From Candidatus Blochmanniella floridana (GTDB lineage Bacteria; Pseudomonadota; Gammaproteobacteria; Enterobacterales; Enterobacteriaceae): a DNA stretch of 32,000 bases. Shown here piece by piece: positions 1,892 through 29,172 of the stretch. The stretch covers positions 660,001-692,000 of the forward strand of contig BX248583.1 in NCBI GenBank assembly GCA_000043285.1, read 5' to 3'. The stretch's first letter is position 1. Each line of letters begins with the position of its first letter. The position numbers and the translations under genes were made by a program. The notes beneath the pieces are model-generated. The model saw only the letters and a program-made list of their open reading frames with translations, was not told the origin of the DNA and searched no databases.

Positions 1892-3556
1892 TTATTGTGT
1901 TAACATCACTTCATTCGAAGAACCAGGAGGAACTAATGGCCAAACATTTGCATCCACATCAATCAAAACATGTAATAAAAAAGGACCTTGATAATTAAGT
2001 AATGTATAAATTGCATCCAACATTTGCGATGTATGAGAAATATACATTCCATCTATATCAAAAGCTTTAGCTAAAATTAAAAAATCAGGATTATCATTTA
2101 AAATAGTTTCGCTATAACGCTTATTAAAAAATAACTCTTGCCACTGACGAACCATCCCTAAACGTTTATTATCCAATAACACAATTTTTACAGGCAACTT
2201 TCTACGCTTAATAGTAGCTAATTCTTGTACATTCATCAAAAATGAACCATCACCAGAAATACATATCACCATATTATTAGGACAACCTAATTGCGCTCCA
2301 ATCGCCGCTGGAATTCCAAAACCCATAGTTCCCAGTCCTCCAGAAGTAATAAAATTCTCAGGTTTACTAAATTGCATATGTTGCGCAACCCACATTTGAT
2401 GTTGACCAACATCAGTAGTAATAATAGTATTAATAGGTACATTATCACTAATTGTTTTTAATAAAACTGGAACGGAAATTTTTTCATTAGTAGATCGTGA
2501 ATAAGACCAACCATATTGTAATTTTAAAGATTGAACTTGATCTCTCCATTTATTAATAGATAAAGATTGTATTAATTCTAATAATAAACTATTTAAATTT
2601 CCCAATAAAAAAACCTGTACTAAACGTAATTTATTACACTCTGATGAATCAATATCCAAATGAATTACTTTGGCTTGTGGAGCAAAAGAAGACAACTGCC
2701 CAGTAACTCGATCATCAAATCTCGCTCCTATTGCAACTAATAAATCACATTGTTGCACCGCCAAATTAGCCGCCTGATTACCATGCATACCTAACATACC
2801 TAAATAACACAATTCCGAACAATCTGGAGCTCCTAAACCTTTTAAAGTTACCACAGTCGGCATACCCCCGGTTTCAGCAATAAACCTTCGTAACGACAAT
2901 ACGGCTCGAGCCATTCCTACTCCTCCTCCTACATATGCTACAGGACGAGAAGAGTTAACCATCAAAATACGAGCTTGATTAACATCATTTTGATTACAAT
3001 TATTATTAAGAATATGATATTCTCTTTGTTTTTCTATATTTTTAGAAAAAGAACCCAAATTGTCAGACAACTGAATATCTTTAGGTATATCTACTAAAAC
3101 TGGACCTGGCCTTCCAGATAATGCAATAAAAAAAGCTTCTTCAATAACATCAGACAACATATCTACAGATCGCACTAAAAAACTATGTTTAGTACATGCT
3201 AAAGATAATCCCAAAACATCAACTTCTTGAAAAGAATCAGTGCCTATAAACTCTAATCCAACCTGCCCAGTAATAGCAACTATCGGAATAGAATCCAGTA
3301 ATGCATCAGCTAACCCAGTAACTAAATTCGTTGCTCCAGGTCCAGACGTTGCAAAACATACCCCTACTTTACCTGTAGCTCTAGCATATCCAATAGCAGC
3401 AATTATCGCTCCTTGCTCATGTCTGCATAATAAGTGTTTAACTTCAGAATCAAACAAAGCATCATATATAGGCATAATCGCTCCCCCTGGATATCCAAAA
3501 ATAATATCCACTTTTTGTTTTACCAGCGCCTTAATTACTTCATGAGCTCCATTCAT
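1892..3556 (-). CDS. ilvG: acetolactate synthase II large subunit (intact)
   Basis: 554 aa ThDP enzyme with AHAS motifs ([44 protein letters not shown]). First gene of the ilvGMED order. Confidence 0.95.
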
Positions 3557-5106: not shown

Positions 5107-6006
<900 letters not shown>

Positions 6007-6152
6007 TCATCCTTATTTATAATAATACAAATAAGTCATATTATAACATATATATGAATATGATCAGTATCATACTATTTCATAAAACCAAGTGCATTAA
6101 ATTCTAAAATATCACATCATCATGATAAATTATACAATAATAAAACAATCAT

Positions 6153-7310
6153 TTAAGATATTGATTGTAATGCTTGATCCAAATCATTAATTAAATCAAC
6201 ACTATCTTCTAAACCTACCGATACACGCAACAACATATTATTGATCCCAGCTGTATCGCGAGATTGCTTTGACATAGCAGCATGAGTCATAGTCTCTGGA
6301 TGTGCAATTAAACTCTCTACCCCCCCAAAAGATTCCGCTAAAGTAAACAACTTTAACGATTTTAAAAACTTTGATACGACACCCTCAGTTCCTTTTAATT
6401 CAAAACTAAATATTGATCCAAATCCAGTTTGCTGTTGACAAGCTATTTTATATCCAACATGACTATATAATCCCGGATAATATATAGACTTAATTTGAGG
6501 TTGTTTTAATAAAAAATCAACAATATTTTTAGTATTACACTGTTGTTGACAAACTCGAATCGATAATGTTCGAATGCCACGTAACAATTGATAACTATCA
6601 AAAGCACCTCCGGTAATTCCCAGTGCATTCGACCACCACATTAACTTTTCATGTAAATATATATCTTTAGAAATAACTGCTCCTAATATTACATCTGAAT
6701 GTCCATTTAAATACTTACTACAAGAATGTACTACTAAATCTGCTCCTAAATTTAAAGGATTCTGAAAAATTGGAGTCATAAAAGTATTATCTACAACATA
6801 AACAATATCATCTCTTTCCTTTAAACTACACATATACCGAATATCTACTACACGAAGCATAGGATTACTTGGAGTTTCAATAAAAACTAATTTAACATCT
6901 TTTTGTTTTAAACATTTCAACATAAGCTCAGTATCATTTTGATTAACGAACTGTACCCGACATACTTTTTTAGAATTTAATGCATTTAATAATCTATATG
7001 TACCTCCATAACAATCATACGGAGCTATTAGACAATCATCTGAATTTAGCAAAGCTATACATATTAAATAAATAGCTGACATACCACTACTTGTAATAAT
7101 TGCATTTTTCCCTTGTTCTAAATCTGCTACAGTTTTCTGAACTATATCGCGAGTAGGATTTTTTCGTCTTGAATAATCATAAAGCCTAGGTTTATTAAAC
7201 TCAAAAAAATTATAAGTTGTTGATAAAGTAATAGGAGATACAACACAACCATGTTGTTTATCATTATTTAAACCGCTTCTAACACTAACAGTTGACTTAT
7301 TATTTTTCAT
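6153..7310 (-). CDS. metB: cystathionine gamma-synthase (PLP-dependent)
   Basis: 385 aa ORF collinear with E. coli MetB (VRSGLN...YDYSRRKNPTRD...HSCSKYLNGHSDV...FTLAESFGGVESL). metL, which lies between metB and metF in E. coli, is absent. Confidence 0.93.
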   Translation of the reverse strand: MKNNKSTVSVRSGLNNDKQHGCVVSPITLSTTYNFFEFNKPRLYDYSRRKNPTRDIVQKTVADLEQGKNAIITSSGMSAIYLICIALLNSDDCLIAPYDCYGGTYRLLNALNSKKVCRVQFVNQNDTELMLKCLKQKDVKLVFIETPSNPMLRVVDIRYMCSLKERDDIVYVVDNTFMTPIFQNPLNLGADLVVHSCSKYLNGHSDVILGAVISKDIYLHEKLMWWSNALGITGGAFDSYQLLRGIRTLSIRVCQQQCNTKNIVDFLLKQPQIKSIYYPGLYSHVGYKIACQQQTGFGSIFSFELKGTEGVVSKFLKSLKLFTLAESFGGVESLIAHPETMTHAAMSKQSRDTAGINNMLLRVSVGLEDSVDLINDLDQALQSIS

Positions 7311-7463: not shown

Positions 7464-7525
7464 AAAATAACAAAAACCCTTTCATCTGATTTCATTAAAT
7501 CAGATGAAAGGGTTTTTGTTATTTT
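7464..7525. terminator. perfect 29-bp-stem / 4-nt-loop palindrome overlapping the rpmE 3' end; probable rpmE terminator
   Basis: 7464-7492 AAAATAACAAAAACCCTTTCATCTGATTT is the exact reverse complement of 7497-7525. The 3' arm on the rpmE strand is U-rich. Confidence 0.7.
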
Positions 7526-7721
7526 TATTAAAACGTTTATTGAATAAATTCACCCGACCTCTAGTATCAATAATACGTTGTGTTCCGGTATAAAAAGGAT
7601 GACAAGCATCACAAACATCTAAATTAATGTTATGTTTTAATGTAGATCTTACATGAATAACATTCCCACAAGAACAGGATGCAGATATAACATTATACTG
7701 CGGATGAATATTTTTCTTCAT
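7500..7721 (-). CDS. rpmE: 50S ribosomal protein L31
   Basis: [20 protein letters not shown]...CHPFYTG...RFNKRF matches L31. The last ~8 codons (KNNKNPFI) lie inside the palindrome arm. Confidence 0.95.
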
Positions 7722-13968: not shown

Positions 13969-14412
13969 CTATTTTTTCAAATTCAATAAAGGAAATCCAC
14001 CATCTACCCAAGAAGAAATACCCCCTTCTAATACATATACTTGCGTAAATCCTAATCTATTTAGATCTTTTTTAACTGAATACAAAAATCTGTCACTCGA
14101 ATTATACACAAGAATCAACGGATTATTCTTCAACCGACTACCCAAAATAAAATCATTCTCCTTTATATCTTTAATAGATATATTAATACTATTAACAATA
14201 TATCCAGAATAATACTCTTCCGAATTACGCATATCAACCACTACAGCACCTTTTTTATTTATTAAAAAAACTGCTTTCTCACACGAAATTTTAAATCCAC
14301 TATACATCCAATTCATATAAAAAATATACAATATTATAACTAACAAAAAACACCATACTAACATTAACACTAAATGGTTTTTACAAAACAACAACATTTC
14401 TTGAAAAAACAT
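13969..14412 (-). CDS. yibN: membrane-anchored rhodanese-domain protein
   Basis: 147 aa ORF with an N-terminal hydrophobic helix plus a rhodanese fold. Position next to grxC as in E. coli. Confidence 0.8.
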   Translation of the reverse strand: MFFQEMLLFCKNHLVLMLVWCFLLVIILYIFYMNWMYSGFKISCEKAVFLINKKGAVVVDMRNSEEYYSGYIVNSINISIKDIKENDFILGSRLKNNPLILVYNSSDRFLYSVKKDLNRLGFTQVYVLEGGISSWVDGGFPLLNLKK

Positions 14413-14679
14413 AATTACACCAAATATATTAACATAATATTATAATTATAATTTCTATAACTAAAACAATCTTCTTTACATTTTATCTAATACTTCACTG
14501 TTACAATATCATTTTAACTAAACAATAATTTTATTTTAACAAATAAAATTATAATATACTTACATATACATAAATTTTATGATAATTAATCAATACCAAA
14601 ACATTTTTAAACCAAAAAGTAACTTTTACATCCAAACAACAAAAAATTTAACAACAAACATAACTAATTAAAATAATAA

Positions 14680-14710
14680 TTGACAAAAACTTTTAATCCA
14701 GTAATACTAT
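14680..14710 (+). promoter_or_regulatory. possible sigma70 promoter for hldD-waaF-waaC (TTGACA at 14680-14685, weak -10 candidates at 14702-14710)
   Basis: A perfect -35 hexamer is rare in this G-poor stretch. The -10 match is weak (TAATAC or TACTAT). If used, the transcript would begin just upstream of the 72-nt palindrome. Confidence 0.25.
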
Positions 14711-14732
14711 ATCTATTATTATAATGGTGTTG

Positions 14733-14804
14733 ATTTATAGTGTAACAATACTCAACACCCGTGACTCCTTAGTCACGGGTGTTGAGTATTGTTACACTAT
14801 AAAT
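14733..14804. repeat. perfect 34-bp-arm palindrome (4-nt centre CCTT) with GC-rich core
   Basis: 14733-14766 ATTTATAGTGTAACAATACTCAACACCCGTGACT is the exact reverse complement of 14771-14804. It lies between divergent genes, 33 nt upstream of the hldD ATG, and has no flanking U-run. Confidence 0.95.
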
Positions 14805-14837
14805 AAATATAGATATATTAAATATATTATTTAGTTT

Positions 14838-15773
14838 ATGATTATAGTTACCGGAGGGGCAGGTTTTATTGGAAGAAATCTTATTAGAAGATTGAACAAA
14901 ATTCAAAGGACAGATATCTTGGTTGTTGATAATTTACGAAATGGAAAAAAATATAAAAATTTAGTAGGATTGCATATTTCTGATTACATAGATAAGCACT
15001 GTTTTATAAAAAGATTATTAAATAATTCTAATTATTTAAAAAATATAGAAGTAATATTTCATGAAGGAGCTTGTTCGAACACTTATGAATGGAATGGAAG
15101 ATATTTAATGAATAACAATTATCAATATTCTAAATCATTACTTAATTATTCTGTTGAAAATTCGATTCCTTTTATATATGCATCTTCTGCTTCTGTTTAC
15201 GGAAAAAATATTTATTCTTCTAATACATTTGATAATAATGAAAACCCTTTGAATATTTACGGTTATTCTAAATTTTTATTTGATCAATATGTTCGAAGTG
15301 TTTTAACAAAAGTTTCTTCTCAAGTTTGTGGATTGCGGTACTTTAATGTTTATGGACCTTATGAAAATCATAAAGGGGCTATGGCAAGTATTATTTTTAA
15401 TATATATCAAAAAATCATACATAGAAAAATCCCTGTTTTATTTATTGGTAGTAGAGATTTTAAACGAGATTTTATATATATAGATGATGTTGTAAATATT
15501 AATATATGGATGTGGGTTAATAAAATATCTGGTATTTTTGATTGTGGAACTGGTGTTTCTGAATCTTTTACATTACTCGCTGATATTGTGTTAAAATTTT
15601 TGAATTATGATTCAATTCAATATGTTCCTATGCCTTATAAAATAAGACAACATTATCAAACATTTACAAAAGCAAATATTTCTTATTTAAGAAATATAGG
15701 ATATGATTTTTCTTTTATTAAATTAAGTGAAGGTATTCATCGATATTTAAATTGGTTAATTCATAATAATTAA
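14838..15773 (+). CDS. hldD: ADP-L-glycero-D-manno-heptose 6-epimerase
   Basis: 311 aa ORF starting MIIVTGGAGFIGRNL (NAD Rossmann), with the YGYSK catalytic motif. Collinear with E. coli HldD/RfaD and followed by waaF-waaC. Confidence 0.94.
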   Translation: MIIVTGGAGFIGRNLIRRLNKIQRTDILVVDNLRNGKKYKNLVGLHISDYIDKHCFIKRLLNNSNYLKNIEVIFHEGACSNTYEWNGRYLMNNNYQYSKSLLNYSVENSIPFIYASSASVYGKNIYSSNTFDNNENPLNIYGYSKFLFDQYVRSVLTKVSSQVCGLRYFNVYGPYENHKGAMASIIFNIYQKIIHRKIPVLFIGSRDFKRDFIYIDDVVNINIWMWVNKISGIFDCGTGVSESFTLLADIVLKFLNYDSIQYVPMPYKIRQHYQTFTKANISYLRNIGYDFSFIKLSEGIHRYLNWLIHNN

Positions 15774-18181: not shown

Positions 18182-19472
18182 GTTTATATTATATATGTTT
18201 GTATATAATATTATTATATACAGTATTCAACCTATCATATGGATTAGATTATTGTGGCGTAGTAGATTTGTACCGACGTATCGTCAGAATTTAGGGGAAC
18301 GTTATGGTTTTTACTGTCATAAAAATATTAAACTTAATAGTATAATAATACATGCTGTTTCAGTTGGAGAAACTTTATCAGTAATACCGTTGATCTATAA
18401 ATTGCGAAAAAAGTATCCAGATGTTATCATTACACTCACTTCTATGACTCCTGCTGGTTTAGAAATGGCTTATAAGTTATCAGCATATTATCATCATGTA
18501 CAATGCATGTATCTTCCTTATGATTTATTTTTTTCTGTAAAACGATTTTTAAATTATATACAACCTAAATTAGTTATTATTATGGAAACAGAATTGTGGC
18601 CAAACTTAATCAATGAATTATATAAACGTCGAATTCCTGTAATTATTGCAAATGCTCGTTTATCAAATATCTCTTTTAAAAAATATAAAATATTTAATCG
18701 ATTTTTTTATTATATTATGCAACGTATAAATACCGTAGCTGTTCAAAGTAAAGAAGATGCATTTCGGTTTTTTAGTTTAGGATTTAAAAAAAATCGATTA
18801 AATATTGTGGGTAATTTAAAATTTGATGTTAGTTCTAACAAAATTAATCTAAAAAAAATTTTATCTTTTGAAAAAATTAAAATTGAAGGCCGTTTGGTTT
18901 GGATAGCTAGTAGTACTCATAAGGGAGAAGAAATAATATTATTAACAGTGTATAAACGACTTTTAAAATCTTTTTCTAATTTACTCTTAATTCTTGTACC
19001 TCGTCATTCTGAACGTTTTAGTGATGTGATTAATATTACTAAACATGCAGGATTTTCTTATGTTGTGAGAAGTAGTGGTGTTATACCTACTAAAGATATA
19101 CAGGTGTTTATTGTGGATACTATAGGAGAATTAATGTTTTTATATGAAATTTCAGATGTAGCATTTATTGGAGGAAGTTTAGTTCGACATGGAGGACATA
19201 ATCCATTAGAAGCCGCTGAGTATTCAATTCCTTTAATTATGGGTCCATATATTTTCAATTTTAGGGATATTTGTAATAAGATGTATAGTTTAAATGGTTT
19301 AATTAAAATTACTGATACGAAATCTCTAATTCATATTATGCATATGTTGTTAAAAAGTAAAGATCGTCGTTTGTATTATGGTGGTTGTGCTTTTAATGTA
19401 TTTAAGAAAAATCGAGGAGCTTCATATAAAATATTAAATATTATAAGTCACTATTTGGTAAAAAATTCTTGA
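18180..19472 (+). CDS. waaA: 3-deoxy-D-manno-octulosonic acid (Kdo) transferase
   Basis: 430 aa ORF collinear with E. coli WaaA (IQPIIWIRL...GERYGFY...SVGE...HGGHNPLEAA). An alternative start at the Met 5 codons downstream is possible. Confidence 0.93.
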   Translation: MFILYMFVYNIIIYSIQPIIWIRLLWRSRFVPTYRQNLGERYGFYCHKNIKLNSIIIHAVSVGETLSVIPLIYKLRKKYPDVIITLTSMTPAGLEMAYKLSAYYHHVQCMYLPYDLFFSVKRFLNYIQPKLVIIMETELWPNLINELYKRRIPVIIANARLSNISFKKYKIFNRFFYYIMQRINTVAVQSKEDAFRFFSLGFKKNRLNIVGNLKFDVSSNKINLKKILSFEKIKIEGRLVWIASSTHKGEEIILLTVYKRLLKSFSNLLLILVPRHSERFSDVINITKHAGFSYVVRSSGVIPTKDIQVFIVDTIGELMFLYEISDVAFIGGSLVRHGGHNPLEAAEYSIPLIMGPYIFNFRDICNKMYSLNGLIKITDTKSLIHIMHMLLKSKDRRLYYGGCAFNVFKKNRGASYKILNIISHYLVKNS

Positions 19473-19530
19473 ATATTATTTCATTGATTTAATTTTTAAA
19501 TCAATGAAATAATATTCAAGAATTTTTTAC
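19458..19530. terminator. perfect 35-bp-stem / 3-nt-loop palindrome between convergent waaA and rpmG; probable bidirectional terminator
   Basis: 19458-19492 is the exact reverse complement of 19496-19530. It contains the waaA stop (19470-19472) and the rpmG stop (19527-19529), and is followed by T7 on the + strand. Confidence 0.75.
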
Positions 19531-19688
19531 TTTTTTTCTGTATATGTAATATGTTTTTTAATAATAGGATCAAACTTTTTTAATTTTATTTTCTCTGGAT
19601 GAGATCGTTTATTTTTTGTGGTAGTATAAAAATGTCCATTACCAGTAGAAGAAAATAAATAAATTATTTCTCGAGTTTCTTTAGCCAT
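19527..19688 (-). CDS. rpmG: 50S ribosomal protein L33
   Basis: Not in the ORF track (53 aa). Manual translation gives [53 protein letters not shown], which matches L33. Directly downstream of rpmB. Confidence 0.93.
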
Positions 19689-19696
19689 GATTATTC

Positions 19697-19936
19697 CTAA
19701 TAATTTTTTTTATTTTTGAAAGATACGATTGATAAAAATTGTTCAATACCTAATTTATCAACTAATCGTATACCTTTTGTAGAAATACGTAATTTAATAA
19801 ATTTTTTTTTATTTTCTATCCAAAATCGATGAGAATGTATATTTGGTATAAACCATCGTTTTGTTGCATTCATAGCATGTGATCTTTTATTTCCATTCAT
19901 TGGTTTTTTTCTTGTAATTTGGCATGTGCGAGACAT
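19697..19936 (-). CDS. rpmB: 50S ribosomal protein L28
   Basis: [39 protein letters not shown]... is collinear with E. coli L28. Confidence 0.95.
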
Positions 19937-20446
19937 ATTATGTCCTTTTGTTATTAATGTGATTTAATTAAATTAAATACATAAAATTATAAGTTATTTA
20001 TCATACATAATATATGAAATTTATTATTATAAAATTAAGATTATAATAAATTAAAGTTCGTTTTATTTATATAAATTAAAATTATTTGTATTTAATACTG
20101 TATTTGATTATAATAAAAAACTAAGTAATTATTGTATATAAATTAGTAATAGCATTAGTTAAAAATAGAAATAATAAATTTATAATAATTTAATTTTTCG
20201 GTACAATAGTATTAAATAAAATAATTTTTAAAAAATTAAAATAATAATATTAATATAATTATGTAATTTTTATATTTTAGTAGAAATTAAAGAAACTGGT
20301 TTAAAATATAAATTTTAATAGTTTTTAAAAATTGTGTTATTAGTTATAGTGTTTTTTTGATAAAAATAGATAAATTATAATTTCATTAAATTATTTAAAG
20401 TTTAAAGTTTTATCGAAATTAACAACAATTGAATTTTTCATGTATT

Positions 20447-20902
20447 ATGAAAATAATTAATATTAAAATTATTAGAAATAATATTAATAATTTTTCTTTG
20501 CCTCAACATATTACTCCTGGTTCTGCAGGGTTAGATTTATTAGCATGCATTGAAAAACCAGTATCTATTCTACCTAAAGAAACTCGATTAATTCCTACAG
20601 GTATTGCTATATATATTGAAGATATAGAAGTGGCTGGTATTATTTTACCTCGTTCTGGGTTAGGACATTATTATGGTATTGTATTAGGAAATACAATAGG
20701 ACTTATTGATTCTGATTATCAAGGAGAAATAATGATTTCTTTGTGGAATCGGGGATCAAATAAATTTATTCTTTATCCAGGTAAAAGAATAGCTCAATTA
20801 TTATTTATATCAATTTTACGAGTTAAACTTTCTCTAGTAAAGTCTTTTGACCCATTTATGAAAACAATTCGTGGAGTGAAAGGATTTGGTCATTCTATGT
20901 AA
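20447..20902 (+). CDS. dut: dUTP diphosphatase
   Basis: MKIINIKII...GSAGLDL...PRSGLG...GLIDSDYQGE motifs. I prefer the ATG at 20447 over the TTG-initiated track start at 20429, based on alignment with the E. coli Dut N-terminus. Confidence 0.93.
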   Translation: MKIINIKIIRNNINNFSLPQHITPGSAGLDLLACIEKPVSILPKETRLIPTGIAIYIEDIEVAGIILPRSGLGHYYGIVLGNTIGLIDSDYQGEIMISLWNRGSNKFILYPGKRIAQLLFISILRVKLSLVKSFDPFMKTIRGVKGFGHSM

Positions 20903-21102
20903 TTTGGGTACTTAATATCATGTACTTTGATAGTAGTTTAATTATTCTTTTATATTTACTATTATGGTTATAATTGATAAATTATTTTATGGTAATAATA
21001 AATTTGTATATCCAAAATTAGTTTGAGTATATTTAACACAAATTATTTGGATTTTATAGTTAAATAAAAATGTATAAGAATAAATATAGATAAATTGAAA
21101 TT

Positions 21103-21975
21103 ATGATTAATAGTATGACTGCTTTTTCTAGATATGAAGTTGTTTATTTATGGGGAAGTGCAGTGTGGGAAATTCGTTCTATGAATCAACGATATTTAGA
21201 TATTTGTATTACTATACCTAAGAATGTCAATGATTTGTTTTGGATAATTAGAAAAAAAGTTAAGAGTTCTCTTACAAGAGGTAAAATAGAATGTCATTTA
21301 CAACTTAATATTAATGTAGATAGTATTAATACTGTTGTGTTTGATAATAAATTATTTTCTTTTTTACTTGATAAAATCAAATATATTAAATCACAAATTA
21401 ATGAAGGGGAAATTGATCTTGTAGAAATTTTATCTTTTCCAGGAATAATTTCATATAAGCATAATAATGATGTATATCAAATAAATAATGAATTATTAGC
21501 TGCTTTTGAACTAACATTATATCAATTAATACGTAATAGAGAAAAGGAAGGTAGTTTTTTAAAGGATAATGTAGTTAATCGGTTATTACAAATTACTACA
21601 GTAATCGATGAAATTCAGAAATATATTCCTCAAATATTACAACAAAAGCGTAAAAAACTTTTGGATTATATTCAGGGTTTTTGTATTAATTTTGATACTA
21701 GTCGATTAGAACAAGAATTATTGTTAATGACACAAAAAATTGATGTTTCAGAAGAAATAGATCGTTTGAAAATTCATGTTGAATCTATGCAAAATCTTTT
21801 ATCTCAAAAAATAAATAAACCTGTTGGAAGACAGTTAGATTTTATTACTCAAGAATTACAAAGGGAGGCTAATACTTTGTCGTCGAAATTAATAGATGCT
21901 TATGTGACAGGTTTGGTTATTTCTTTAAAGATATTAATTGAGCAAATTCGTGAACAGGTTCAAAATATTGAGTAA
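21103..21975 (+). CDS. yicC: YicC-family stress-induced protein (endoribonuclease family)
   Basis: 290 aa ORF collinear with E. coli YicC (MINSMTAF..., EEIDRLKIHV, GRQLDFITQELQREANTLSSK, C-terminal IREQVQNIE). Confidence 0.9.
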   Translation: MINSMTAFSRYEVVYLWGSAVWEIRSMNQRYLDICITIPKNVNDLFWIIRKKVKSSLTRGKIECHLQLNINVDSINTVVFDNKLFSFLLDKIKYIKSQINEGEIDLVEILSFPGIISYKHNNDVYQINNELLAAFELTLYQLIRNREKEGSFLKDNVVNRLLQITTVIDEIQKYIPQILQQKRKKLLDYIQGFCINFDTSRLEQELLLMTQKIDVSEEIDRLKIHVESMQNLLSQKINKPVGRQLDFITQELQREANTLSSKLIDAYVTGLVISLKILIEQIREQVQNIE

Positions 21976-22047
21976 TGAATAATAATTATTGTTAATTATG
22001 TTTCTTTGATAATGGTGTAATTGAGTATAAATTATTTTATTAAAGAT

Positions 22048-22109
22048 TATTTTTAAAATTTATTTATATTTATTTTTATAAAAATAAATATAAATAAATT
22101 TTAAAAATA
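22048..22109. repeat. 62-nt perfect, loop-less, pure A/T palindrome
   Basis: 22048-22078 TATTTTTAAAATTTATTTATATTTATTTTTA is the exact reverse complement of 22079-22109. Confidence 0.9.
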
Positions 22110-22159
22110 TAACAAAAATAAGTTTTTTTGTATAAAAAAACTTATTTTTGTTATTTTTT
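22109..22159 (+). terminator. intrinsic terminator downstream of yicC: perfect 21-bp stem, GTAT loop, T5 run
   Basis: 22109-22129 ATAACAAAAATAAGTTTTTTT is the reverse complement of 22134-22154. Followed by TTTTT. An A-run upstream makes it potentially bidirectional. Confidence 0.75.
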
Positions 22160-22522
22160 ACTAAAAATAATCAAAAAAATATTATAAAACATAAAAAAAT
22201 ATCTCAAAATGACTTTATTTGACTGATTTCTTTTTTCAATCTTAGAATATTTCAAATTATTTAAAACTTAGATAGAATAAAATTGTTAATAATCTATATG
22301 TATATATTATTAATTTGTAACATCCTAATTTAGGAGGATAAAATTATAACAATTTTTTTTAAAATAATTTAGTTCTATTTTAGATACAAAGTTGCTTAAG
22401 GCTATTAGTTACATAACATTACATTAATTAAATTATTAGTTTAAATAAATAACACCGTAATTGTATTGTAATAAAAATAGTATTTTATAATTGTTGTTGA
22501 TTTAATGTAGAGATATATAATT

Positions 22523-22957
22523 ATGAACAGATTAACAGATATTGCAAATATGGTAGAATCTTTGTCTCGGATTTATCATCGTCTTCGTAAAGAAATTAAT
22601 GGTCAGTTAATTAATGAAGGCCTATCTATGTCTAAAATGAAAATTTTACATCTTATAACTACTGGTAAAACCAGTGCAACAGATATTAAAAATTATATGG
22701 GATTTTCATCAAGGACAGTAGTTACTGTACTTGATGCGTTGGAAAAAGATGAAATGTTACGTCGACAACAAAGTCTTACAGATCGTCGTGTAAAGTATGT
22801 ACATATCACAAAAAAAGGACAGGAGAAATTGATTATAGCTAAATGTACATATAATATTATTTTAGATCGTATATTTGCTCCTTTATCTGATGTACAATTA
22901 AAGAATTTTTATGAAGTATGTAATTTATTGGAAATCCAACAAAAAATAGCACAATGA
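22523..22957 (+). CDS. MarR-family winged-helix transcriptional regulator
   Basis: 144 aa. Family pattern visible: HTH region (SATDIKNYMGFSSRTVVTVLDALEKDEMLRR) followed by a wing (LTDRRVKYVHITKKGQEKL). Composition matches the neighbouring genes. No E. coli counterpart at this syntenic position. Confidence 0.75.
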   Translation: MNRLTDIANMVESLSRIYHRLRKEINGQLINEGLSMSKMKILHLITTGKTSATDIKNYMGFSSRTVVTVLDALEKDEMLRRQQSLTDRRVKYVHITKKGQEKLIIAKCTYNIILDRIFAPLSDVQLKNFYEVCNLLEIQQKIAQ

Positions 22958-23073
22958 TATTTAGATATATTATAAGTAGATCATATAAAATGAATAAATA
23001 TAACAATACTATATATGATATACTATAAAATATATAATAATTTATTATTCAATAATTGGATTGTAAGTACTAT

Positions 23074-23125
23074 TAAATACAAACTACTAACTATCCATAT
23101 ATGGATAGTTAGTAGTTTGTATTTA
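23074..23125. repeat. 52-nt perfect loop-less palindrome between the MarR-family gene and gmk
   Basis: 23074-23099 TAAATACAAACTACTAACTATCCATA is the exact reverse complement of 23100-23125. No U-run follows. Confidence 0.9.
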
Positions 23126-23157
23126 CGTAATATGTAAACGATAGATAATATTTGATA

Positions 23158-23790
23158 ATGAAAAAGTATTCTGGATTATTAGGTATAATATCTGCTCCTA
23201 GTGGAGCAGGGAAGTCTACTTTAATAAATGCTTTACAAAAAAATGATTCAATTTTACAAATAAAATTATCGATTTCTTATACTACTCGTAAAAAGAGACC
23301 TGGAGAAGTACATGGAAAAGATTATTATTTTATTTCTATAGAAGAATTTCAAAATATGATTAATCAGAATATGTTTTTAGAATATGCAAAGGTTTTTAAT
23401 CATTATTATGGCACTGAAAAAAATAGTATTAAATTAATGCTGAATTCTGGAGTACATGTAATTTTAAATATAGATTGGCAAGGAATGAATCAAATTCGTA
23501 ATAAAAAATTGGATTTTTATACTATCTTTATTTTACCACCATCTCAAAAAGAATTAGAAAAAAGATTAAGATTTAGAGGATTAGATACTGATCAAGTTAT
23601 TTTTGATAGAATGAAACAGGCAATGAATGAAATTAGTCATTGTAAAGAATATGATTATATTATTATAAATGATGATTTTAATATTGCATTAATATATTTA
23701 CAGTCTGTAATTTTATCTAAACAATTAAAAATTGATTATCAGGAATATCATAATAGTAATTTGATTAATAATTTGTTATCATGTCTATAA
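23158..23790 (+). CDS. gmk: guanylate kinase
   Basis: MKKYSGLLGIISAPSGAGKSTLI P-loop, YTTRKKRPGEVHGKDYYF, collinear with E. coli Gmk. I prefer the ATG at 23158 over the TTG at 23152. Confidence 0.93.
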   Translation: MKKYSGLLGIISAPSGAGKSTLINALQKNDSILQIKLSISYTTRKKRPGEVHGKDYYFISIEEFQNMINQNMFLEYAKVFNHYYGTEKNSIKLMLNSGVHVILNIDWQGMNQIRNKKLDFYTIFILPPSQKELEKRLRFRGLDTDQVIFDRMKQAMNEISHCKEYDYIIINDDFNIALIYLQSVILSKQLKIDYQEYHNSNLINNLLSCL

Positions 23791-23826
23791 TGAATAGTTA
23801 TAGTTTTATGTATGTAAAATAATAAA

Positions 23827-24009
23827 ATGATTGAAAAAAAAATAGTAGAAGAAATCAATAGTCGATTTGATTTAATATTGGTTGCATCTAAATACGCTAG
23901 ATCTATACAACAAAAAGAAAATTCGATTCAATTATCATCATGTAAACATAAATGTACTGTAATTGCTTTGCAAGAATTAGAAAAAAGTATGATTAATATA
24001 GATAAATAA
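23827..24009 (+). CDS. rpoZ: RNA polymerase omega subunit, shortened (60 aa)
   Basis: NSRFDLILVASKYARSIQ...CTVIALQELEKSMIN matches the conserved N-terminal core of RpoZ. Position after gmk as in E. coli. Confidence 0.85.
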   Translation: MIEKKIVEEINSRFDLILVASKYARSIQQKENSIQLSSCKHKCTVIALQELEKSMINIDK

Positions 24010-24079
24010 TTAATATGTTTAATAATTATATAGTATTAAATACGATATAATATGTATATAAAGGTAATGTTTGGTATTT

Positions 24080-25501
24080 ATGAATGTTGATTATTTTATT
24101 TCTTTTATAAATAAAAATAAAGTAAAGTTTATTGATTTACGTTTTACTGATATAATGGGTAAAGAACAGCATTTTACTATTCCACAATCACAGATTGATA
24201 ATCATTTTTTTGAGAATGGTAAAGTTTTTGATGGTTCTTCTATGGTAGGTTGGAAAAATGTTCATGAATCGGATATGATACTGATTCCAGATTTAACTAA
24301 TGATCATATAATAGTTGATCCATTTTATCAAGATACTACTGTAATATTACGTTGTGATGTACTTGACCCTCATAGTATGCAAAATTATGATAAAGATCCG
24401 AGATATATATCAAAAAAATCAGAAAAGTTTTTACAAGATTCTGGTATTGCTGATTTCGCTATGTTTGGTCCAGAACTAGAGTTTTTTGTATTTGATGATG
24501 TTAGATTTAAAACATCTATGTCAGGTTGTCATGTAATGATTGATGATCCAGAAGCATCATGGAATAGTGATAAAGTTTATTTTTACGGAAATAAAGGACA
24601 TAGACCAAAAATAAAAGGTGGATATTCTCCAGTTCCACCGATTGATTCTTCTCAAAATTTAAGGTCTATGATGTCTATTATGATGGAAAAAATGGGATTA
24701 ATTGTAGAAACTCATCATCATGAAGTAGCAACTGCTGGTCAAAATGAAATAATAACTAGATTTAATTCTTTAACTAGGAAAGCAGATGAAGTACAAATAT
24801 ATAAATATATAGTACATAATGTTTCGAATAAATTCGGAAAAACTGCTACTTTTATGCCAAAGCCTATTATAAAAGATAATGGTTCAGGTATGCATTGCCA
24901 TATATCTTTGTATAAGAACAAAGTTAATTTATTTTCAGGTGATCAGTATGGAAATCTTTCGGAAATTGCTTTATTTTATATAGGAGGTATTTTAAAACAT
25001 ACTAAAGCATTAAATGCTATAACTAATCCTACTACCAATTCATATAAACGATTAATCCCTGGTTATGAAGCTCCAACATTTTTAACTTATTCTTTATCTA
25101 ATCGTTCTAGTGCTATTCGTATTCCTGCAATAATTAATAATAATCCAAATTTATGTAGAATAGAAGTTCGATTTCCTGATCCATCAGCTAATCCTTATTT
25201 GGCTTTTCCTGCGTTATTGATGGCTGGTATAGATGGTATTATTAATGAAATCCATCCTGGAAATCCTGTAAATAAAAATTTATATACTTTATCTGATTTA
25301 GAAAAAGAACATACATTGTACACGTCTCAATCTTTAAATGAATCATTACAATATTTAAGTGAAGATTATGAATTTTTAATAAGAAATAATGTGTTTAGTA
25401 AAAATTTTATTGATTCGTATATATTAATACATAAAAAAATGGATAGCTTAGTAAGATCAGTTCCACATCCGATGGAATTTGAATTATATTATAGTATATA
25501 A
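24080..25501 (+). CDS. glnA: glutamine synthetase type I
   Basis: Collinear with E. coli GlnA ([57 protein letters not shown]). The ATG at 24080 is preferred; the TTG at 24071 is an alternative. Confidence 0.94.
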
Positions 25502-29120: not shown

Positions 29121-29172
29121 TATTGATTTTTCTATGATTCATATACTTATATGAATCATAGAAAAATCAATA
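29121..29172. repeat. perfect 25-bp-arm palindrome (2-nt centre) downstream of ubiD
   Basis: 29121-29145 TATTGATTTTTCTATGATTCATATA is the exact reverse complement of 29148-29172. About 127 nt past the ubiD stop. Confidence 0.9.

Follow-up and report, generated by a model that had tools for sequence, protein, structure and literature searches.

A 32,000-nucleotide (nt) stretch of the Candidatus Blochmanniella floridana chromosome (contig BX248583.1, positions 660,001 to 692,000 of the forward strand), referred to below as the window, carries on its plus strand a marR-family gene with a 144-amino-acid product (22523-22957). The gene, called marR here, is located between yicC and gmk, has long palindromes on both sides, and is the only regulator among about 24 genes annotated in the window. 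Almost no transcription factors are left in obligate insect symbionts, and it is an open question if, and by what means, these bacteria still control gene expression. A protein annotated in B. floridanus as "transcription regulator protein, MarR family" has the same sequence as the product (100% identity), and both the gene and its family are already known. The original prediction, which was made from the DNA letters, had called the gene an orphan; this description did not hold, because the gene was already annotated and orthologues were found throughout the Sodalis-allied clade. What is new here, as judged by sequence comparison, is that the product appears to represent a clade-restricted, uncharacterised MarR subfamily, conserved beyond its housekeeping neighbours and kept in genomes down to 0.22 Mb, with a promoter that appears to be conserved from free-living relatives.

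The marR product, its relatives and its conservation

Classification with hidden Markov models showed that the Pfam MarR model PF01047 matched the product with 38 bits, against a gathering cut-off of 24.6, and covered residues 34-90, which agrees with the winged helix-turn-helix (HTH) pattern initially recognized in this open reading frame (ORF). The fold was modelled with AlphaFold2 from an alignment of 18 sequences spanning Blochmannia, Sodalis, Baumannia, Wigglesworthia and a weevil symbiont, to which the alignment data below also refer. The model had a mean predicted local distance difference test score (pLDDT) of 90.6, with six predicted helices (residues 3-30, 36-46, 52-59, the recognition helix 63-75, 97-118 and 123-143) and a predicted beta-wing at residues 79-95, made of strands 79-83 and 91-95. 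In this arrangement the N- and C-terminal dimerisation helices surround the HTH and the two-stranded wing, as is characteristic of the MarR topology. Comparison of the model with the PDB using Foldseek returned MarR-family structures only (ST1710, MexR, BldR, HsmR, MftR, SlyA, MarR and FabT), with template modelling (TM) scores of 0.86 for ST1710, 0.81 for MexR and 0.78 for a SlyA-DNA complex at about 20% identity; the targets in this range of 0.78-0.86 are MarR-family crystal structures, DNA complexes among them. The best PDB match by sequence had an E-value of 1.7e-5. There was no helix-1 (N-terminal) cysteine of the OhrR/MgrA type in the alignment, and the sole widely conserved cysteine, C133 in the last helix, is substituted in one Blochmannia. 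These data indicate that marR encodes what is predicted to be a functional MarR-type winged-helix protein.

An indexed protein search returned 78 relatives, which were confined to Blochmannia, Sodalis, Baumannia, Wigglesworthia, Doolittlea, Gullanella, Steffania, the secondary symbiont of Heteropsylla, Biostraticola, Acerihabitans and a weevil symbiont, with S. praecaptivus, S. glossinidius, S. pierantonius and many symbiotic strains among the Sodalis carriers. The same taxonomic range was obtained when one genome per GTDB species was scanned, which yielded 27 marR loci. The closest free-living homologues, which were to be sought according to the original prediction, belong to Sodalis, Biostraticola and Acerihabitans. 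At the other extreme of genome size, marR is intact at two of the 27 loci, on the complete chromosomes of two weevil symbionts, of 219,841 and 226,299 bp; their isolate names, NAREPO1 and NARPIN1, presumably denote Nardonella, while the NCBI listing is unclassified Gammaproteobacteria. An exhaustive profile search against 1.84 billion cluster representatives returned a single cluster, that of the protein itself, at E<1e-30, and the next full-length match was a Serratia/Enterobacter MarR protein at 1e-23 and 33% identity. In a neighbour-joining tree the marR products formed a tight family separated from this Serratia/Enterobacter outgroup by a very long branch. Taken as a whole, the searches indicate that the marR product belongs to an uncharacterised MarR subfamily which appears to be restricted to the Sodalis-allied clade.

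The alignment contained 58 invariant columns. The residues from S51 to T65, which correspond to helix 3 and the start of the recognition helix, formed a contiguous invariant run, and most of helix 4 as well as D87-R88-R89 in the wing were also invariant, while the C-terminal helices were variable. Judging from what is known of the family, S51-T65 and the wing residues D87, R88 and R89 would be the DNA contacts. The amino-acid identity between B. floridanus and Sodalis was 79-82% for marR, but 50-53% for gmk and 43-48% for rpoZ, and the mean identity among seven Blochmannia was 78% for marR, compared with 62% for dut, 58% for gmk, 55% for rpoZ and 50% for yicC. The nonsynonymous divergence (dN) of B. 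floridanus from each of the other Blochmannia was 0.07-0.20 for marR and 0.20-0.54 for the neighbours; within this genus the marR values are two to four times below those of the four neighbouring genes. For B. floridanus versus B. vafer the ratios of dN to synonymous divergence (dS) were 0.07/0.81 (about 0.09) for marR, 0.25/0.90 for gmk and 0.53/0.94 for rpoZ, and the neighbours overall gave 0.28-0.56, values which can be read as relative only, since dS is near saturation. The gene was present and intact in 7/7 Blochmannia and in every symbiont examined; presence and dN/dS in related symbionts had been named beforehand as a check, and no decay was seen. The retention of a regulator in a reduced genome, which the original prediction had regarded as unexpected, is therefore stronger than was guessed, extending to genomes of 0.22 Mb. 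The sole frameshifted copy is that of Acerihabitans sp. KWT182 (locus L034, 3501-5165), where gmk in the same assembly is frameshifted too, so that indel errors in the assembly are a likelier cause than pseudogene formation. These comparisons indicate that marR is under unusually strong purifying selection.

Gene order and the putative promoter of marR

On the upstream side marR is preceded by yicC (21103-21975, + strand; TIGR00255, 260 bits), and on the downstream side it is followed by gmk (23152-23790, + strand), rpoZ (23827-24009, + strand) and glnA (24071-25501). The corresponding order in E. coli K-12 is yicC-dinD-yicG-ligB-gmk-rpoZ-spoT-trmH-recG, with no MarR gene, exactly as had been stated for this position. 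As had also been stated, metJ and spoT are missing from their syntenic slots: spoT was not found after rpoZ in the window, and metJ was not found between rpmE (7500-7721) and metB (6153-7310). The novelty that had been attached to the position of marR came from the comparison with E. coli alone and was not upheld, because the place beside gmk is ancestral for the clade. The seven Blochmannia have the common order dut-yicC-[547-949 nt]-marR-[194-326 nt]-gmk, and marR is located directly upstream of gmk in all of them as well as in 23 of the 28 non-Blochmannia loci. In Sodalis praecaptivus, Wigglesworthia and Baumannia marR stands straight before gmk-rpoZ, with a varying upstream neighbour, and in Gullanella yicC is upstream, as it is in Blochmannia and E. 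coli. The five cases of marR without adjoining gmk are Doolittlea, the Heteropsylla symbiont, Sodalis sp. Tder and the two weevil symbionts, the last two having the order dnaB-(xni)-marR-tilS. The simplest reading of these gene orders is that the ancestral arrangement was yicC ... marR-gmk.

The composition of marR resembles that of its surroundings, in agreement with what had been noted originally: the segment 22001-23000 has a GC content of 0.20 and a GC skew of +0.16, and the neighbouring kilobases have 0.19-0.24 and +0.22 to +0.29. The native composition, the same location in seven Blochmannia and the synteny with Sodalis bear out the view that the gene is not a recent import; its descent is vertical, from the ancestor shared by the Sodalis-allied Enterobacterales.

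The genes following gmk varied among the Blochmannia. In the Blochmannia of Polyrhachis (L037, 4380-4914) rpoZ was not found between gmk and glnA by tblastn at E<=1e-3, while it was found in the other five Blochmannia loci, and the L037 copy may be lost or extremely diverged. In B. vafer (L035) and the Colobopsis symbiont (L038) glnA is missing after rpoZ and polA comes next, while in L039 glnA is a 34-residue remnant (5947-6048), which points to lineage-specific loss of glutamine synthetase in these three Blochmannia.

The non-coding DNA between the last hairpin after yicC and the marR ATG is 363 nt long, close to the 370 nt given in the original prediction. Iterated nhmmer searches detected, with E-values from 1e-10 to 1e-29, a block of about 110 nt upstream of marR in Sodalis, Acerihabitans, Biostraticola, Doolittlea and Steffania, located about 250-420 nt before the ATG. 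The core of this block, a sigma-70-type TTTCAA, 17 nt, TAAACT, is the only part kept in Blochmannia. The corresponding putative promoter block in the window, ATATTTCAAATTATTTAAAACTTAGATAGAAT (22247-22278, + strand), lies about 245 nt upstream of marR, and it is the sole block shared by free-living Sodalis, Acerihabitans and Biostraticola and by Blochmannia. It contains a putative -35 element TTTCAA (22250-22255) and, after a 17-nt spacer, a putative -10 element TAGAAT (22273-22278), and a promoter scan also picked 22250-22278. When the positions at least 90% conserved in the non-Blochmannia sequences were used as a search pattern, 22247-22278 matched with two mismatches, compared with 0.14 chance matches expected in the window; the only other match in the window was an A/T-only low-complexity one at 20224-20253. 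Sensitive blastn searches of the spacers against relatives were swamped by A+T-rich chance matches and were usable only for the comparison of B. floridanus with B. vafer, which gave 68% over 326 nt, and for a 28-nt promoter match to Sodalis. In the weevil symbionts the upstream region, about 108 nt of pure A/T, contained no footprint.

The distance from promoter to ATG is long in all relatives, reaching about 310 nt in Sodalis, and in the window it corresponds to a putative 5' leader of about 240 nt (22279-22522, + strand). About 200 nt upstream of the start codon this leader contains a GGAGG box (22323-22327, + strand), which recurs in the otherwise A+T-rich leaders of Blochmannia, Sodalis, Steffania and Biostraticola (L035, L040, L037, L002, L014 and L022). 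A leader peptide following this box was considered and rejected, as inspection by eye gave no ORF of consistent start, length and sequence across species. The predicted ribosome-binding site (RBS) of marR itself, TAGAGAT, is located 8 nt before the ATG (22508-22514, + strand), and its AGAGA is found at unchanged distance in nearly all orthologous loci, the two weevil symbionts being the exceptions. In S. praecaptivus (L002, 5100-6000) about 880 nt upstream of marR are free of ORFs and have 30-41% G+C, compared with about 58% in the neighbourhood and 44-49% in the marR gene itself; this tract resembles regulatory DNA of the H-NS type, or else what is left of an old acquisition. A 16-bp palindrome is located some 45 nt before the conserved -35 element; it reads TATCACTGCCGTGATA in the Acerihabitans group (L026, about 3228-3243, and equivalent loci) and TATATTTGCCATTATA in Sodalis (L002, about 5593-5608). 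The half-sites of the two versions co-vary. B. floridanus has not kept this palindrome, which could be a binding site for a different regulator.

The conserved sigma-70-type promoter block and the terminator-like hairpins after yicC support the earlier description of marR as a stand-alone gene and indicate that it probably forms a separate transcription unit.

Palindromes of the flanking spacers

The yicC gene is followed by a perfect, A/T-only palindrome of 62 nt (22048-22109) and by a hairpin with 26-nt arms that are 96% complementary (22104-22159, + strand; -21.1 kcal/mol, z -6.9), to which a TTTTTT tail is attached (to 22165). The two together (22040-22165) have a folding energy of -41.6 kcal/mol and a z-score of -11.4. 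A scan of 21900-23250 with a consensus terminator rule returned no intrinsic terminator, although its G+C rule may not suit spacers of 20% G+C; the hairpin at 22104-22159, with only two G-C pairs, fails this rule and is nevertheless the best terminator candidate for yicC. Between marR and gmk there is a perfect palindrome of 52 nt (23074-23125; -33.5 kcal/mol, z -8.5), which is not followed by a T-run. These folding energies are far below those of shuffled sequences. Its existence had been correctly recognized, while its placement immediately downstream of marR was wrong, because it begins 116 nt after the marR stop codon and lies 27-33 nt before the gmk start. A permissive Rfam scan of 19400-24200 gave no known RNA family, only sub-threshold matches to microRNA precursors caused by the perfect hairpins.

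At least six long, near-perfect palindromes were found in the 32 kb: in addition to the three described above, these are 7464-7525 (29-nt perfect arms, at the 3' end of rpmE), 14716-14821 and 29121-29172 (25-nt perfect arms, between polA and ubiD). The further palindromes at 7464-7525 and 29121-29172 indicate that such hairpins are a general, genome-wide property of B. floridanus spacers. The alignment of the marR-gmk spacers of seven Blochmannia revealed no conserved sequence. The spacer hairpin of B. vafer (L035) is G+C-rich (-52.9 kcal/mol), that of L039 is a different perfect stem with 23-nt arms, that of L036 has a 17-nt core and a large loop, and no hairpin was found in this spacer in L038 or in free-living Sodalis. 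Hence, the flanking palindromes appear to be generic, species-specific intergenic hairpins, and the presence of structure without sequence conservation suggests a role at the level of RNA or DNA structure, such as transcript-end formation or insulation, or an origin as slippage products.

The palindrome at 14716-14821 (51-nt arms, 86% complementary) coincides with a change of GC skew from about -0.35 to +0.15, which occurs at 14400-15000 between two divergent genes, a rhodanese-like ORF (13969-14412, - strand) and hldD (from 14838, + strand). The minus-strand polA gene at 26-28 kb keeps a positive skew, so that the change looks related to replication rather than to the coding strand. The site is a candidate for an origin- or terminus-type switch; the B. 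floridanus genome is not known to contain dnaA.

Proposed function and comparison with known regulators

The explanation which we consider best, with a probability of roughly 0.6, is that marR encodes a constrained, vertically inherited MarR regulator with a small core-gene regulon, and that the palindromes are not its operators. A MarR homodimer would use its invariant helices 3 and 4 and wing to bind a palindromic or pseudopalindromic operator, and this operator would be constant across the Sodalis-allied clade. The targets would probably be a few core genes that every carrier genome contains, because marR survives repeated genome reduction, with or without an adjoining gmk, and outlives nearly all accessory functions; the promoter region of marR with its long leader is probably also among them, in which case the gene would be autoregulated. 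An operon for drug efflux or aromatic catabolism, as in classical MarR systems, is an unlikely target. The hairpins, in turn, may act as terminators, insulators or stabilisers of mRNA 3' or 5' ends. Several points weigh against this explanation. We infer the core-gene regulon from retention patterns only, and the clade-wide adjacency to gmk could still signal a local role. No operator was found, and the region upstream of marR had no recognised motif in common with any of the other promoters of the 32 kb. The scan of one genome per GTDB species missed existing Blochmannia and Baumannia loci and was not used for claims of absence, and the near-saturated dS values restrict the comparison of selection to relative terms.

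A bolder version of this explanation, which is tentative, considers marR as a lineage-defining, near-essential global regulator or nucleoid organiser, which would have arisen once in the Sodalis-allied ancestor and would have been kept as core machinery through every descent into symbiosis, down to 0.2-Mb genomes. The location at gmk would then be a rare genomic change tying Blochmannia, Baumannia, Wigglesworthia and the weevil symbionts to the Sodalis clade, and it would provide a marker for a placement that has been difficult to obtain from sequence phylogenies because of long-branch artefacts.

The gene order raises the question of whether marR is instead a local regulator of the gmk-rpoZ(-spoT) operon, which would couple guanylate, RNA polymerase omega and stringent-response expression to a signal, with the hairpin before gmk as a part of the control. 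The directly adjacent, same-strand arrangement of the two genes persists despite the varying upstream neighbour (yicC, a fabB/F-like gene, an SDF transporter or a glyoxalase/ABC transporter), and in three Blochmannia species a long hairpin is found 33-41 nt before the gmk start. However, ancestral synteny in static genomes could account for the adjacency, the spacer between the two genes lacks conservation among Blochmannia, and the five carriers named above keep marR without gmk beside it. A spacer alignment of 16 free-living relatives showed only the promoter of gmk itself, which is conserved and of the extended -10 type (GCTGCA...TGTGTATAAT), and no motif common to this promoter and the marR upstream region was seen. 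Because the gmk promoter is its own and unlike the region upstream of marR, a purely local role is rated as unlikely.

It is similarly improbable that the product is a SlyA/RovA-like or nucleoid-associated protein, which binds A+T-rich DNA with low specificity and shapes global transcription. Membership in the MarR family, the extreme A+T richness of the carrier genomes and the low-GC tract of about 880 nt upstream of marR in S. praecaptivus, typical of H-NS-type control, would fit such a role, as would the "slyA" name given to the gene in some symbiont annotations and papers. On the other hand, a recognition helix that hardly varies points to a specific site and not to loose binding of A+T-rich DNA. 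The NCBIfam SlyA equivalog model NF002926 gave the window protein 27.5 bits, against a cut-off of 120, which ruled out its identity as a SlyA orthologue; the best E-value of this model among the 18 family members was 3.3e-10, and Salmonella SlyA in the PDB aligned only at E 0.005, no better than archaeal MarR proteins. A gene labelled "slyA", which may or may not be this MarR gene, is listed among constrained symbiont genes with a relative constraint R of 0.948 (PMC5437351 supplement), and this work is cited as the evidence for slyA constraint in Wigglesworthia (PMC6401476). If the entry does correspond to marR, then the inference about SlyA is a mislabel, given the failure of the SlyA model.

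The palindromes had been proposed in the original prediction as possible targets of the MarR dimer. MarR dimers bind inverted repeats, and marR is flanked by two of the three longest perfect palindromes of the window, but MarR sites are typically 16-20 bp, and these palindromes are 52-62 nt long and belong to a set found at the 3' ends of unrelated genes. The hairpins of the marR-gmk spacer are unrelated in sequence (L035, L039) or missing (L038, free-living Sodalis), while the DNA-binding residues are invariant, and for this reason it is very improbable that they are operators. The least credible idea is that marR is a decaying, functionless relic, since, even though reduced genomes carry some genes on their way out and one Acerihabitans copy is frameshifted, the gene is intact in every symbiont examined, with dN far below that of its housekeeping neighbours and with conserved start codon, RBS and promoter, and the single frameshift is shared with gmk in a way that suggests an assembly error.

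The marR product is more conserved than the enzymes encoded next to it, is confined to one clade, and has been kept in symbionts of ants, tsetse flies, sharpshooters, mealybugs and weevils. Sodalis praecaptivus, which is culturable and genetically tractable, has an orthologue 81% identical to the B. floridanus protein, so that experiments there could identify the regulon and the effector, and the results could be extended to the symbionts that cannot be cultured. A further possible use of the gene, together with its location beside gmk, is as a clade marker by which symbionts on long branches could be placed. In the literature searched, the protein appeared only in expression tables and under the "slyA" label, and no study of its function was found. 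The Wigglesworthia orthologue WIGMOR_0357 was differentially expressed in trypanosome-stimulated flies (PMC4233935), and a "marR-like" gene of Baumannia, described as of "role unknown", differed in expression between bacteriome types (PMC5592932), which shows that the orthologues are transcribed and vary with the state of the host.

Among known regulators, the nearest full-length relative outside the clade is the uncharacterised MarR protein of Serratia marcescens/Enterobacter (WP_046899117, P0079; 33% identity over 134 residues, pairwise E 1e-25), which differs in being rare (6 members), in not being syntenic and in its very long branch. The SlyA/RovA lineage is similar to the marR product as a MarR-family protein of Enterobacterales, and SlyA is said to be kept in insect endosymbionts (PMC6401476), but the SlyA structures rank 28-29 in the Foldseek comparison with 21% identity, and slyA is located next to ydhIJK, while marR adjoins gmk. 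The name "MhqR" on the Sodalis orthologues P0022, P0027, P0028 and P0059 comes from automatic annotation. MhqR of Bacillus subtilis, a quinone- and aldehyde-responsive MarR protein, belongs to the same superfamily, but no mhq-type dioxygenase or reductase genes are found beside the marR orthologues, and no equivalog-level model backs the name, the B. subtilis sequence itself not being part of this comparison. The other NCBIfam-named MarR models (FabT, MprA/EmrR, HpaR, OhrR, AdcR, TcaR, Hpr and others) gave at most about 34 bits with the 18 members tested, against cut-offs of 120-220. Both labels, "slyA" and "MhqR", thus appear unsupported by the sequence models and, in so far as they are applied to this protein, are corrected here as misleading. 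With the generic MarR family, represented by ST1710/BldR of Sulfolobus and MexR of Pseudomonas, the marR product shares its length, the six helices with a beta-hairpin wing and the D-R-R motif of the wing, but it differs in its identity of only about 20% to these proteins, in the lack of an adjacent efflux or catabolic operon, in its residence in symbiont genomes of 0.2-0.8 Mb, and in a conservation far above that usual for MarR paralogues.

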